From a virus, in the IMG/VR virus record IMGVR_UViG_3300029866_000016, positions 1 to 41,506 of that record: a stretch of 41,506 nt of DNA. The stretch is one strand, 5' to 3'. Under the pieces are notes generated by a model. It ran no database searches. It saw nothing but the letters and a program-made list of their open reading frames with translations, and was not told the origin of the DNA. A program made the position numbers and the translations under genes. Positions 29,864-41,506 of this stretch are shown here, in pieces; the first letter of the stretch is position 1, and each line of letters begins with the position of its first letter.

Positions 29864-30020
29864 CTCTCAAAATTTAGGGGATACTCTCAAATTTTGAGAG
29901 AACGCCGCCAACTTTTTGACGCATCAATTGGCTCTCAAATTCTTGATCTAATACTAGTTAAATTTTGAGAGCTAATTTTAAATTTTGAGAGCTAATTTTA
30001 AATTTTGAGAGCTAAAATTT
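29864..30020. repeat. Iteron family A: CTCTCAAAW, 3 direct and 4 inverted copies, including a 17-bp palindrome and a 3x 20-bp tandem repeat
   Basis: Forward copies at 29864, 29884 and 29932. Reverse copies (ttttgagag) at about 29892, 29964, 29984 and 30004. Tandem aaattttgagagctaatttt x3 at 29961-30020. Confidence 0.8.
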
Positions 30021-32239: not shown

Positions 32240-32863
32240 ATGATTAAATTTAAAATACCAGCAGAGCAAATTAGAGCCGCACTAATTCACGTCGCAAAGG
32301 GTGATGTTAGATATTTTCTTTGCGGTATCCACGTCGCAAAAAACAACGACGTGGTATCAACTAATGATCACACACTATTTTTAAGCGACAATGACGTGCT
32401 TAATGCTTTTGATAATGCCGATGGCGGTTTTGATTTGTCTGAGTGTTATGAGTACCCAGAGGATGGCATCATCTTGGATACGTCTAATAAATGGCCTATT
32501 TTGGACAGTAAGGTTAAATACGTTGGTGTCGAGATAGACTATGGTACTGAAACTGCGAACATCTCTTATCATGTGTTCGTCGATAAACAATTAAAAACTG
32601 CACGTCAAACCGTTGAATTCGCCGTAAAACTTATCGGTGCTAAGTTCCCTGACTATCAGCGTGTTATGCCCACACGCAACGACTCAGAGCCGACACCCAC
32701 AATCATAAACTTTTCGCCCGCGCTACTCGCTACGATTGCCAAAACATTTCCTCGCAAAAACACCGGTGTGTCGATTGAGATATTTGGGGCTAATACTGCG
32801 ATTAAGATTACGAGTAAATACTCTCCGACATTTATATTAATCATCATGCCATGTCGAGTATGA
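32240..32863 (+). CDS. Truncated DNA polymerase III beta-clamp-like protein (207 aa)
   Basis: DVRYFLCGI (E. coli DnaN: DVRYYLNGM), STNDHTLFL (ATDGHRLAV), GAKFPDYQRVMPTRN (DGRFPDYRRVLPKN), C-terminal IIMPCRV (VVMPMRL). Confidence 0.6.
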   Translation: MIKFKIPAEQIRAALIHVAKGDVRYFLCGIHVAKNNDVVSTNDHTLFLSDNDVLNAFDNADGGFDLSECYEYPEDGIILDTSNKWPILDSKVKYVGVEIDYGTETANISYHVFVDKQLKTARQTVEFAVKLIGAKFPDYQRVMPTRNDSEPTPTIINFSPALLATIAKTFPRKNTGVSIEIFGANTAIKITSKYSPTFILIIMPCRV

Positions 32864-32938
32864 TAACGGATGACTCACAACTAACTAAATTTGATTGATA
32901 AACGGCTCGCGAAGAGTTTTACACAAAAGAGGCAGAAA

Positions 32939-33934
32939 ATGAAATTTGATATCTTAAATCGGGTCGGTAATGAAGTGAAATTTACGGCAGACATAGACTG
33001 TAGTGAATCATTGTTAGAGGCGCAGAAATTGGGTTTAGCGGTGAAGTGGGCGGTGAGGTGGGTGATTAGAAGTCGTACCGAACTGCGTGGTGCCGATCTG
33101 AGAGGCGTCGACCTGAATAATGTCGACCTGAGTGGGGCCGACCTGAGTGGTGCCGATCTGAGAGGCGTCGACCTGAGCGGGGTCGACCTGCATGATTCCG
33201 ACCTGCATGATTCCGACCTGCATGATTCCGACCTGCATGATTCCGACCTGCGTGGGGCCGACCTGAGCGATTCCGACCTGAGCGGGGCCAACCTGAGCGG
33301 GGCCAACCTGCACGGGGCCAACCTGCGCGGGGCCGACCTGCGCGGGGCCGATCTGCGCGGGGCCGACCTGAGCGGGGCCAACCTGCGTGGGGCCGACCTG
33401 AGTGATTCCGACCTGAGCGGGGCCAACCTGAGCGATTCCAACCTGCGCGGGGCCAACCTGAGCGGGGCCAACCTGAGCGGGGCCAACCTGCGCGATTCCG
33501 ACCTGCGCGGGGTCGACCTGCGCGGGGCCAACCTGAGCGGGGCCAACCTGCGCGATTCCGACCTGCGCGGGGTCGACCTGCGCGGGGCCAACCTGAGCGG
33601 GGCCAACCTGGATAATTCCGACTGGGTACCAAAAATCGAAAACATCCACGCCACCGTATATGCCGCTGCGAAGGAGGGAGATGCTCTTGACATGGATCAA
33701 TGGCATACATGCGAGACCACCCATTGTCGGGCGGGATGGGTGGTCACTCTTGCCGGGGCGGCGGGGAAGGTTATGGAGGGTGTTTACGGGACGAGTGCGG
33801 CGGCAGCATTAATCTATATGTCTAGTGATCCGGCTATGAAAAAGATACCAAATTGGTTAGCGTTGGATGAAGATGCTCTGCAAGATATGCAAGAAATGGC
33901 AGAAGCGGAACAACTAACTAAAGAGGCAACATGA
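32939..33934 (+). CDS. Pentapeptide-repeat protein (35 consecutive repeats) with Cys/His C-terminal domain
   Basis: Start MKFDILNRV follows aaagagg. Repeats are [RSH][GD][ASV][DN]L x35, then ...WHTCETTHCRAGW.... The ORF-track 5' extension to 32891 starts at a TTG. Confidence 0.85.
   Translation: MKFDILNRVGNEVKFTADIDCSESLLEAQKLGLAVKWAVRWVIRSRTELRGADLRGVDLNNVDLSGADLSGADLRGVDLSGVDLHDSDLHDSDLHDSDLHDSDLRGADLSDSDLSGANLSGANLHGANLRGADLRGADLRGADLSGANLRGADLSDSDLSGANLSDSNLRGANLSGANLSGANLRDSDLRGVDLRGANLSGANLRDSDLRGVDLRGANLSGANLDNSDWVPKIENIHATVYAAAKEGDALDMDQWHTCETTHCRAGWVVTLAGAAGKVMEGVYGTSAAAALIYMSSDPAMKKIPNWLALDEDALQDMQEMAEAEQLTKEAT
33086..33610 (+). repeat. 15-nt periodic coding tandem array (pentapeptide repeats) with perfect internal duplications
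   Basis: catgattccgacctg x4, perfect (33191-33250). 33481-33540 is identical to 33541-33600 (60 nt). Confidence 0.9.
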
Positions 33935-34024: not shown

Positions 34025-34348
34025 ATGCGTGTTGGATGTCATAAAAATGTAACTGAGTACGATGGTGCATTTAATTGTCTTGACTGCAATAATAAATGGG
34101 GAGCACTCGGCCCTGACTACCCTAACAACGCGTCAAAATATTGCGACGTTAAGCTATTATCGTTGACGGGCAAGACTAACACGAGATATTGTGATAAGAC
34201 CCACCAGAGCCACATTTGGATAAATTGGCAAACTAACGATCGTCAGTGTGAAACTAGCGAAGATCAATTATCAGCGATACTCTATGATGTGTTTAAAAAG
34301 TTGGAGTCAGGCGTAACAGTTGAATTAAGTGTGACCCAAAATGAATAG
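34025..34348 (+). CDS. Cys-rich small protein (107 aa), possible zinc binder
   Basis: Strong RBS aaggagg 7 nt before the ATG at 34025. Sequence: MRVGCHKNVTEYDGAFNCLDCNNKW...YCD...YCDKTH...C. The ORF-track start at 33935 lies in the intergenic motif. Confidence 0.55.
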   Translation: MRVGCHKNVTEYDGAFNCLDCNNKWGALGPDYPNNASKYCDVKLLSLTGKTNTRYCDKTHQSHIWINWQTNDRQCETSEDQLSAILYDVFKKLESGVTVELSVTQNE

Positions 34349-34745
34349 AGAAAACATACCAGCATCAATCAACATCTTGCAACGAGTGATTGACAGGGGC
34401 TCTAATTTTGATATCAATTTTTGGGCCAGCCCCCTGCGGCAGGGGGTTGATGCAAGCGAAGAGTCATACCACGCTTGCGGCATGTCTGCTTGTTGGGGTG
34501 GATGGGTTGGAGTTTCGCCTGAATGGCCAGGGGGCGTTGACTATTCTGGCGGGCCTACTCTAATAAATGGATACGGTGAAAAACTTGTTGGTACCTGTGC
34601 TCTGGCTCATTGGCTAGACGTTGACCTTAAGATGGTCGCAAGTATCGCAGGTTTGGTCGAGGTGGGGGAGTATTACGCTGTTCGCAAGGCTGACATCACC
34701 CCGCAAATGGTAATAACTAAACTAGAGGACTTATTAAATGGATAA
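34341..34745 (+). CDS. Hypothetical protein sharing the H-x-C...C-x-G-G-W module with the pentapeptide protein C-terminus
   Basis: SYHACGMSACWGGWVG compared with WHTCETTHCRAGWVV. Confidence 0.5.
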   Translation: MNRENIPASINILQRVIDRGSNFDINFWASPLRQGVDASEESYHACGMSACWGGWVGVSPEWPGGVDYSGGPTLINGYGEKLVGTCALAHWLDVDLKMVASIAGLVEVGEYYAVRKADITPQMVITKLEDLLNG

Positions 34746-39096: not shown

Positions 39097-39681
39097 ATGT
39101 ACAAACTAACAATCAACTTTGACTCAGTCTCACAGCTTAAATGCGTTGCAGATTTTATTGCTAGTCAGCGAGCGACAGAGGTAGCACCGACAGCGACATC
39201 AATAGAGGTGGCGCCGACAGTGGCATCAATAGAGGTGGCGCCGACAGTGGCATCAATAGAGGTGGCGCCGACAGTGGCATCAACCCCGTGGGATGCCCGC
39301 ATACATAGCAGCACTCGGAGCGTCACAAATAGTGGTGAGTGGGTCAAGCGCCGAAATGTTGACAAAGCAGAATATGAGCGAGTGCTTGCTGAGATTAATG
39401 CCCCAGCAGAATATGAGCAAGCACTCGCTGAGGTTGACGACTTCCCCGCCACCCTCACCCCGGTAGAGCCTGTCCAGGCCGAAATTAGGTATGAAAATAT
39501 GCAGGAAGCCCTAGCGCATCTAGCTAATGTAGTGTCTAAAGTTATCGGTGACGGCGCCGTGTTGCCTCAGGATATTATGGGTGAGTATAAACTGTGCGGT
39601 GTGAATAATCTTGATCAGCTTAACAGTGACTTAGAGTTGGTCAATAAAGTGATCGTGCATTTTGAGTCTAAAAGTGCATAA
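39097..39681 (+). CDS. Hypothetical protein with 9-aa tandem repeats and a PWDxRIH motif
   Basis: (EVAPTVASI)x4 followed by PWDARIHSSTRSVTNSGEWVKRR. Confidence 0.5.
   Translation: MYKLTINFDSVSQLKCVADFIASQRATEVAPTATSIEVAPTVASIEVAPTVASIEVAPTVASTPWDARIHSSTRSVTNSGEWVKRRNVDKAEYERVLAEINAPAEYEQALAEVDDFPATLTPVEPVQAEIRYENMQEALAHLANVVSKVIGDGAVLPQDIMGEYKLCGVNNLDQLNSDLELVNKVIVHFESKSA
39178..39285 (+). repeat. 27-nt coding tandem repeat x4
   Basis: gaggtggcgccgacagtggcatcaata units. Copies 2 and 3 are identical. Copy 1 is diverged and copy 4 differs only at its last 2 nt. Confidence 0.85.
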
Positions 39682-40741: not shown

Positions 40742-41506
40742 AAAATTATATATAATCACACCTGTTGGTCGGATAGTGCAAGGGCATCCAATGGAACCGA
40801 ACACGAAAGGATATAATGGCAATGTGGCGGTTAACAAAAATGGTGAACCTAAAACTAGTTATTTCTTTTCTCTAGCTATTGAAAAAAATAACCCCGATTG
40901 GGTAGCATTTTGGCAGCAGATAACAGATTACGCCGCCAAAGTTTACCCAGGCAATGAGTCGACATTCAGCGGCTTCAAATGGAAATATTTGGATGGTGAC
41001 GCACCCGAACATTTGGGCAAGGACGGATTTGCGACGTGTCATGTACTTAAGTTGTCGCAAGGATTTGTACCCTCCCTTGTTGATAGCGCGGGTAACGGCA
41101 TGAACGGCGATCAGCTAAAACGCGGTGACTTTGTGAGAGCACAGTTAAGTGTCGGCCCAAATCGCGAGGCGTCGCCAAACACTGGCTTATTTTTAAATCC
41201 ATCTATGATACAGCACGTCGCTTTCGGTGCTGCAATTTCAGCAGGGCCGGATGCGGCAGAAGTATTTGGTGCTTCTAAAATAGGTTATGTTCCGCCGGGT
41301 GCAAGTCAGACACCAGCCGCGCCGGCTCAAGGATTGCCTGGCACTCCGGCTCCGGCTCAACAATACGCACCAGCCGCGCCGGCTCAAGGATTGCCTGGCA
41401 CTCCGGCACCGGCTCAACAATACGCACCAGCAGCACCAACTCAAGGGCTGCCCGGCACTCCGGCACCGGCACCGGCTCAACAATACGCACCAGCAGCACC
41501 AACTCA
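40734..41506 (+). CDS. ssDNA-binding-protein-like gene (DUF2815 / gp2.5-like), 5' part. It continues at 1-160.
   Basis: ATG at 40734 overlaps the upstream TGA (ATGAATGA). The frame is open to the window end. Sequence: MNEKLYIITPVGRIVQGHPMEP... followed by a Pro/Ala/Gln repeat linker. Confidence 0.55.
   Translation, partial: MNEKLYIITPVGRIVQGHPMEPNTKGYNGNVAVNKNGEPKTSYFFSLAIEKNNPDWVAFWQQITDYAAKVYPGNESTFSGFKWKYLDGDAPEHLGKDGFATCHVLKLSQGFVPSLVDSAGNGMNGDQLKRGDFVRAQLSVGPNREASPNTGLFLNPSMIQHVAFGAAISAGPDAAEVFGASKIGYVPPGASQTPAAPAQGLPGTPAPAQQYAPAAPAQGLPGTPAPAQQYAPAAPTQGLPGTPAPAPAQQYAPAAPT
41313..41506 (+). repeat. 57/63-nt coding tandem repeat (PAAPAQGLPGTPAPAQQYA), continuing at 1-105
   Basis: Units at 41313-41369, 41370-41426 and 41427-41489, plus a partial unit. 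41429-41506 is identical to 1-78. Confidence 0.9.

Follow-up and report, generated by a model that had tools for sequence, protein, structure and literature searches.

The IMG/VR virus record IMGVR_UViG_3300029866_000016, analysed here over its full length of 41,506 nucleotides (the window), carries on its + strand a gene at positions 32939–33934 for a protein in which 35 contiguous pentapeptide repeats lie between a short N-terminal cap (N-cap) and a conserved C-terminal domain of about 100 amino acids (C-domain). Sequence comparisons mark this gene as an extreme-length new member of phrog_31265, a known, uncharacterised phage family (match at 7e-81, covering amino acids 129–325) that is defined by its C-domain and not by its repeats. 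We regard the architecture and the family assignment as near certain. Our working reading, which we hold tentatively, is that the gene encodes a three-module phage accessory protein whose C-domain serves as a core that docks onto a protein of DNA metabolism, with the repeat rod as an appendage; the mode of action within this reading is a guess.

A three-module pentapeptide-repeat protein

The open reading frame (ORF) extends from an ATG at position 32939 to a TGA at 33934 and specifies 331 amino acids. A GAGG motif resembling a Shine–Dalgarno sequence is located 6 nucleotides 5′ of the ATG (32929–32932), and the JGI and ENA gene callers independently give the identical 331-amino-acid call. A 331-amino-acid gene is likewise called on contigs L008, L009, L011, L012, L018 and L019. 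The tandem A(D/N)LXX pentads score far above the Pfam gathering threshold for the pentapeptide repeat family (PF00805, 215.6 bits versus a cutoff of 20.2, E = 3e-65). This is a real pentapeptide-repeat protein gene.

All modules are encoded on the + strand. The N-cap (amino acids 1–49, positions 32939–33085) carries the motif MKFxIxNR..G.V.F and is followed by the array of 35 pentads (33086–33610). A sequence-only reading of the window had described 35 uninterrupted repeats of the form [RSH][GD][ASV][DN]L; the count is correct and 34 of the 35 fit this pattern, pentad 3 being NNVDL. A degenerate 36th pentad, DNSDW (33611–33625), joins the array to the C-domain (approximately amino acids 230–331, 33626–33931), within which the motif WHTCETTHCRAGW occupies amino acids 255–267 (33701–33739).

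Two other ways of reading these nucleotides were rejected. A longer, TTG-initiated ORF begins at 32891, although relatives of the protein begin with MKF and independent callers choose the 331-amino-acid form. Minus-strand ORFs of 270, 229 and 214 amino acids also overlie the array (32881–33724), and these are stop-free artefacts caused by the repeats rather than genes.

A conserved C-terminal domain

A search with the C-domain alone yielded 619 close proteins, and a profile search with this domain recovered 1863 cluster representatives at E ≤ 1e-3 (1313 at ≤ 1e-10). Identity over the C-domain is 50–82% across the hits (55–82% to 120 hits) and 50–65% across very different hosts, and the domain is nearly always located at the C-terminal end of family proteins. 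The N-cap, which matches a separate model (phrog_31567), is conserved in proteins P0001 and P0002 and in Ralstonia phage and Acinetobacter phage homologues. The consensus of the alignment conforms to MKFxIxNRxxGxVxF, and the N-termini of P0001 and P0002 show nearly the same pattern.

Twelve positions are at least 95% conserved in 247 aligned C-domains (H237, H256, C258, H262, C263, R264, G266, W267, E280, Y293, S296 and D316), although the conservation of H262, R264, G266 and W267 is partly by construction because the regular expression used for selection fixed or restricted these residues. H256, C258, H262 and C263 are conserved at 99–100% (H262 at 100% by construction) and H237 at 96%. The near-invariant motif of the domain is WH-C-TTHCRAGW, and all conserved columns of the phrog_31265 C-domain signature (P.I..IH ... 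WH.C.TTHCRAGW ... LIY..SDP) are present in the protein encoded by the window.

What precedes the C-domain varies widely. P0044, P0008 and P0207 are stand-alone C-domains with nothing before them, and P0135 carries leucine-rich-repeat-like repeats in place of pentads before its His/Cys C-domain. In prophage-like loci of Dyadobacter and Spirosoma, the C-domain is fused to Cys-rich CSxCSx repeats where pentads would otherwise be found; these fusions are located at L151 7254–8309 and L163 7509–8315 (Spirosoma, Dyadobacter; Bacteroidota). Such arrangements show that the repeat rod is dispensable or interchangeable in the family, and it looks like an accessory to the C-domain.

The closest known systems are PHROG 31265 and the proteins of Ralstonia phages annotated as ‘putative pentapeptide repeat protein’ (RsoP1IDN gp4, BHDT_So9 ORF31, DLDT_So2 ORF30 and Sarlave S3_00013), which have the same build of N-cap, pentapeptide repeats and C-domain, the last with WH..CGT(A/T)HCRAGW, like the protein studied here. 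In tblastn comparisons, Sarlave, BHDT_So9 and DLDT_So2 match with 46–49% identity over 97–98% of the query, and RsoP1IDN with 54% identity over 64%. Their genes also reside in the early region upstream of replication genes and carry long, variable arrays. In contrast, the Ralstonia phages are podoviruses, whereas the window is myovirus-like and comes from an environmental metagenome, and their pentads are of the AYL/ADL types rather than the ADL/ANL/SDL types observed here.

A nearby ORF at 34341–34745 (+ strand, 134 amino acids) contains YHACGMSACWGGWV, a sequence similar to the C-domain motif WHTCETTHCRAGWV. A paralogous relation between this ORF and the C-domain was rejected, as hhalign gives a probability of only 26%. 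A homologue of the ORF is also kept beside the short relative P0001, on contig L005. Contigs of relatives (L005, L108 and L109) are binned into unrelated metagenome-assembled genomes (MAGs) of Phycisphaerales and Robiginitomaculum, and these assignments probably represent mis-binned phage DNA. Record names (TULL18-1 scaffolds, NORP MAGs) suggest a single series of marine subsurface metagenomes, which may be that of North Pond, as the origin of the phage and its nearest relatives.

Amplification and length variation of the array

The array bears the marks of recent expansion at the DNA level. Tandem Repeats Finder reports a period of 15 nucleotides with 32.5 copies (score 428) and a higher-order period of 60 nucleotides with 5.6 copies (score 487, 88% matches). 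Four perfect 15-nucleotide copies of CATGATTCCGACCTG, encoding HDSDL four times, are located at 33191–33250, and positions 33481–33540 are duplicated exactly at 33541–33600. Both features had been noted by the sequence-only reading as signs of expansion, and both are exact and far above chance expectation. Identity in the second extends to 89 nucleotides (33462–33550 equals 33522–33610), such that the region 33462–33610 forms a perfect higher-order repeat at an offset of 60. Perfect repeats of this kind indicate very recent events.

Codon usage within the array is monotonous. Leucine is encoded by CTG in 35 of 35 cases (13% in the genome), alanine by GCC in 20 of 20 (15%), glycine by GGG in 21 of 25 (18%) and valine by GTC in 6 of 6 (20%), and the array contains only 18 distinct 15-mers. 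Its GC content is 0.695, whereas the two flanks within the gene have 0.435 and 0.50 and the window as a whole 0.457. Thus, the monotone codons, the small set of 15-mers and the high GC content establish that the array was built by DNA-level amplification of few founder units, in agreement with the earlier suggestion of recent expansion. The 60-nucleotide period corresponds to four pentads, or one coil of a quadrilateral β-helix, and expansion by this unit therefore adds whole coils. The nearest relative, P0001, which comes from the same metagenome set, has a C-domain that is 82% identical and a matching N-terminal pattern; its array comprises only about 4 pentads, likewise coded GGG-GCC/GTC-GAY-CTG.

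Among family representatives, the C-domain is preceded by 0 to about 34 pentads (median 8, 95th percentile 26), and the same count gives about 36 for the window. Ralstonia phage Sarlave has about 38 pentads, and the window therefore tops the family range but is not unique. Other Ralstonia phages have 24–30. In five allele pairs, the N-terminal and C-terminal parts are identical and pentad number alone differs, as with P0012 and P0014 (3 versus 11). The cultured Ralstonia phages BHDT_So9 and DLDT_So2, which come from the same host, have genes that differ by a single 45-nucleotide (3-pentad) insertion or deletion, with 100% identity over flanks of 1.5 kb and 1.4 kb (about 2.9 kb; L188 and L189). 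Indeed, these 45 nucleotides account for the entire difference in genome length between the two phages (41,296 versus 41,341 bp). Rod length thus changes fast among close relatives. The expectation that repeat number varies between isolates is borne out by these relatives; for the phage of the window itself such variation is a prediction.

This behaviour shares in-frame gain and loss of units, perfect DNA repeats and monotone codons with coding tandem repeats of the contingency type. Unlike those loci, however, variation here would alter the length of a solenoid rather than switch expression on or off, and there is no sign of programmed variation.

A phage-borne family in early, recombination or replication modules

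The phage genome in the window is myovirus-like: its − strand encodes sheath, tape measure, baseplate, portal and capsid proteins and the small (TerS) and large (TerL) terminase subunits. Cultured phages share no more than 39% identity with its TerL, and no near-identical DNA was found in them. The + strand holds a replication module in the order superfamily 2 (SF2) helicase, a 207-amino-acid clamp-like protein, the repeat gene and four small ORFs, followed 3′ by genes for an HNH-like protein, a primase and an exonuclease and then, across the contig ends, a DNA polymerase gene. From position only, we infer that the repeat gene is expressed early.

The upstream neighbour (32240–32863, + strand, 207 amino acids) matches phrog_3007, a group with the annotation RusA-like resolvase, and gives weak matches to the processivity-factor models phrog_947 and Pfam DNA_pol3_beta_2. 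Since phrog_3007 is also matched by a bona fide phage sliding clamp (L163), the PHROG label may be wrong and the neighbour may be a short clamp-like protein. Further upstream, between the small terminase gene (− strand) and the helicase gene (+ strand), a perfect 20-nucleotide tandem repeat of 2.9 copies, TTAAATTTTGAGAGCTAATT, occupies positions 29958–30015. This repeat in a divergent intergenic region may serve as an iteron, an operator or an origin element.

Related settings recur among relatives. In the Ralstonia podoviruses, the family gene immediately precedes the primase and helicase genes in the early region, and a Xanthomonas albilineans prophage and contigs of temperate phages carry it between the cI/cro switch and the integrase gene. 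Genes for AAA_24 (Sak4-like), SSB, ERF, DUF669 and methyltransferase proteins accompany it in temperate relatives, and in Dyadobacter it adjoins genes for a sliding clamp, an Ant antirepressor and a resolvase. Pattern scans found 419 loci on IMG/VR viral contigs but only 100 in species-representative genomes, of which 185,579 were covered; many of these 100 lie on short MAG contigs. At least one flanking protein is held in common with viral loci at 31 of 37 long bacterial loci.

The family is thus phage-borne, residing in early, recombination or replication modules of phages and prophages. The sequence-only reading had likened the N-terminus and the Cys/His C-domain to an uncharacterised bacterial pentapeptide family and had proposed capture from a host. 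A family with this N-cap and C-domain does exist, but its phage and prophage setting and shared flanking proteins leave recent host capture unsupported.

Reliability of the repeat count

This environmental phage genome has been assembled repeatedly, and some of the assemblies break at the array. Two ENA scaffolds (scaffold_288 on L004, and a second on L010) are 100% identical to the window yet contain the same gap of 100 N at 33576|33577, within the 60-nucleotide duplication. In other samples, eight contigs break off in or beside perfect tracts: five have their end at 33206, 33213, 33222, 33268 or 33516, one begins at 33462 and two begin at 33581. Contigs L015, L016 and L017 break within the four-copy tract at 33191–33250.

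An identical 996-nucleotide gene is nevertheless present in four independent gap-free assemblies (JGI Ga0315559_100038 and ENA scaffolds 48, 193 and 303), and a fifth gap-free assembly carries the 996-nucleotide gene with three single-nucleotide polymorphisms (SNPs). We therefore rejected the idea that the window is merely a scaffold stripped of its N characters. In the variant from L012 (4278–5273, ENA scaffold_762), three substitutions at gene positions 495, 502 and 508 turn pentads 24–25 into a copy of pentads 22–23, which reflects either conversion within the array or an assembly chimera. The figure of 35 pentads is a reproducible short-read consensus, not a proven count of the perfect units or of heterogeneity in the population.

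These observations bear on the possibility that the long array is largely incidental, produced by neutral slippage and partly by short-read inflation or collapse, such that few pentads would suffice for function. The array of about 4 pentads in the closest relative, the very recent origin of the perfect repeats, the gaps and contig breaks at perfect tracts, and the variant that resembles conversion or mis-assembly are all in keeping with this explanation. However, the agreement among gap-free assemblies, in which the reading frame is always kept, argues against it, as does the independent recurrence of long arrays in Sarlave and in other Ralstonia phages. Furthermore, growth by the 60-nucleotide unit proceeds in complete coils that show a face-specific pattern, which suggests that the fold stays under selection. 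We consider a largely incidental array unlikely.

Elsewhere in the window, a 27-nucleotide tandem repeat of four copies (39177–39283, 95% matches), encoding SIEVAPTVA-type repeats, lies within the ORF at 39097–39681 (+ strand). ENA scaffold_288 has a second gap of 100 N at 39278|39279 within it, and this repeat number is therefore uncertain too. The window also has a 78-nucleotide terminal direct repeat (1–78 equals 41429–41506) located within a 57-nucleotide tandem repeat (1–78 and 41311–41506) that encodes a segment rich in Pro, Ala and Gln. The apparent circular closure sits in this 57-nucleotide repeat, and the contig ends therefore may not be true genome ends.

Predicted structure and surface charge

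AlphaFold2 was used to model the full-length protein from an alignment of 66 sequences (mean predicted local distance difference test (pLDDT) score of 80). The N-cap is modelled as a β-hairpin and a helix, with pLDDT values of 89–95 for amino acids 1–40. From about residue 97 to 218, the model places one short strand or bridge every 5 residues, and the array is predicted to form a right-handed quadrilateral β-helix of about 9 coils with four pentads per coil. The β-helix of about 9 turns expected by the sequence-only reading is thus also what the model predicts, with pLDDT values of 80–89 for residues 100–220 and of 46–63 for residues 50–100, where relatives have gaps in the alignment. The C-terminus is a five-helix bundle in the full-length model, and the C-domain modelled alone is all α-helical (pLDDT 89.5, predicted template modelling score 0.84).

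A Foldseek search of the full model against viral structures found nothing beyond other unnamed pentapeptide proteins, a search of the C-domain against the PDB returned no hits at E ≤ 10, and its sole match in BFVD is a homologous fragment of 74 amino acids. The C-domain has no match in Pfam, NCBIfam or PADLOC, and Pfam searches of 12 C-domain members at E ≤ 5 gave only stray matches (AvrPtoB-E3 in 2 of 12, at 0.012). The only match of the C-domain in phmmer and profile searches against the PDB, a weak one to mitochondrial RBFA (E = 7e-4, 22.6 bits), was rejected as one between Ala-rich helices, with Foldseek blank; RBFA has a KH-type α/β fold. The NCBIfam model ‘Alr5209’ passes its cutoff through five repeat stretches only and was rejected as a repeat artefact.

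The protein is acidic, as the sequence-only reading had described, with a net charge of −26 and a pI of 4.5; the array contributes −18 and the C-domain −9. Charge per residue is −0.08 for the whole protein and −0.10 for the array. The median for family arrays is −0.037 per residue, a value of 0 or more is reached by 25% of them, and the array of the window falls at about the 10th percentile, among the most acidic. In its 3′ half, Asp occurs chiefly in one pentad per coil (RDSDL/SDSNL), and the other pentads are mostly neutral GANL.

As with Ocr, ArdA or Gam, an acidic rod could be a decoy against host defence or nucleases: it would fill the DNA-binding site of an enzyme of the restriction, BREX or RecBCD type, and the C-domain would anchor or dimerise the protein. 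Like T7 Ocr, ArdA, lambda Gam and T7 gp5.9, it is an acidic protein encoded in an early or accessory position of a mobile element, and the slot that the family gene occupies in temperate relatives, near recombinases and methyltransferases, is similar to the lambdoid gam/abc2 slot. The fast evolution of the array is also typical of arms-race genes. Several features speak against a decoy, however. The fold is unrelated to those mimics, and the charge of −0.08 per residue is far below that of Ocr or ArdA, which have a charge density of about −0.2 per residue. Neutral or basic arrays and array-less members occur in the family, whose acidity is therefore not conserved, and its His/Cys domain has no counterpart in Ocr, ArdA, Gam or gp5.9 and is conserved to an extreme unlike most anti-defence proteins. 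No PADLOC or anti-defence annotation and no link in the literature were found. We judge a decoy role unlikely.

The sequence-only reading had compared the array with DNA mimics of the Qnr/MfpA type. In the explanation built on this comparison, the acidic β-helix would imitate a T segment and bind, modulate or protect host gyrase or topoisomerase IV during infection. The number of coils is comparable to that of an MfpA or Qnr monomer, Qnr, MfpA, AlbG and McbG share a pentapeptide β-helix of about 8–10 coils with an acidic surface, and phmmer matches the structures of Qnr, QnrB1 and MfpA through the repeats. Small phage inhibitors of gyrase also have precedent in Igy and Gip (PMC10886550).

Kinship with these proteins is not borne out, however. 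The protein scores 75.6 bits against the Qnr family model NF033086 (cutoff 240), far below cutoff against all Qnr subfamily models, and 95 bits against the MfpA model NF000349 (cutoff 360). Qnr proteins have loops A and B, about 215 amino acids and a short C-terminal dimerisation helix, whereas this protein has an uninterrupted array without such loops, 331 amino acids and a different, multi-helix C-domain of about 100 amino acids. The gene resides in a phage replication module rather than in an mfp conservon. Constant length would be expected of a length-tuned DNA mimic, and the span of 0 to about 38 pentads in the family weakens this explanation, as do the substitution of other repeat types in some members, the acidity that is not maintained across the family, and the confinement of Asp in the 3′ half mainly to one pentad per coil. 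DNA mimicry is not supported as the function of the family, the rod is probably not a length-tuned mimic of the Qnr/MfpA type, and we consider action on host topoisomerases by this route improbable.

Equally improbable is that the C-domain is an enzyme or a redox or metal sensor with a Cys/His active site that the repeats only present or space: its near-invariant His, Cys, Arg, Glu, Tyr, Ser and Asp residues, its conservation across very different hosts and its occurrence with any or no repeat array would suit such a role, but it is small and all α-helical, has no relative in fold or sequence among enzymes, and its compact H-x-C...H-C spacing is more like that of a structural metal site.

Discussion

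Our working reading is of a phage accessory protein composed of an N-cap, a pentapeptide β-helix rod and a conserved C-domain. The length of the rod changes quickly by in-frame gain and loss of 15-nucleotide units and their multiples (45 nucleotides in the pair of Ralstonia phages and 60 nucleotides here), and in this phage the rod has been amplified to about 35 pentads from few founder units. The C-domain is most likely the functional core. It may be stabilised by a metal, probably zinc, bound through the H...H-x-C...H-C ligand pattern, and we infer that it docks early in infection onto a conserved host or phage protein of DNA metabolism. The acidic rod may be a tolerated, length-variable extension that serves as a steric blocker, a spacer or a generic nucleic-acid-like surface. 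In lambda, the slot of the pL operon equivalent to that of the family gene in temperate relatives holds the inhibitors of host proteins gam, kil, cIII and ral, and this match fits a role in host takeover or counter-defence.

Several points weigh against this reading. Metal binding is predicted from a sequence motif, and the partner protein is putative. A search for conserved neighbours in 58 viral loci found the largest neighbour cluster in only 4 loci, and adjacency to a sliding clamp is not a rule, being limited to the window, a pair of Dyadobacter loci and one distant case. The length of the rod could still matter. Moreover, the array of this allele is among the most acidic of the family, which leaves possible room for DNA mimicry here; a nucleic-acid-like role against gyrase, RecBCD or restriction/BREX-type enzymes is therefore possible, at low probability.

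A bolder form of the three-module reading holds that the C-domain is an undescribed zinc-binding fold whose docking partner is a replication or repair protein conserved in all hosts, with the solenoid, usually of pentapeptide repeats and sometimes of leucine-rich-repeat-like or Cys-rich repeats, as a rapidly length-varying steric or electrostatic blocker of access to DNA. We consider this form doubtful. If it is true, repeat gain and loss would be a device for an arms race or for tuning, and the family would constitute a new class of modular host-takeover proteins in phages of many bacterial phyla.

The locus breaks short-read assemblies and is also usable as a strain marker. In the library searched, we found no characterised phage pentapeptide protein and no link to anti-defence; the mentions are annotations by analogy. 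Phage pentapeptide-repeat genes are common and are often annotated in this way as gyrase inhibitors or quinolone-resistance proteins. The findings for the phrog_31265 family caution against Qnr-like resistance labels and shift attention to the conserved His/Cys C-domain, which is more interesting than the repeat array, and to its partner.

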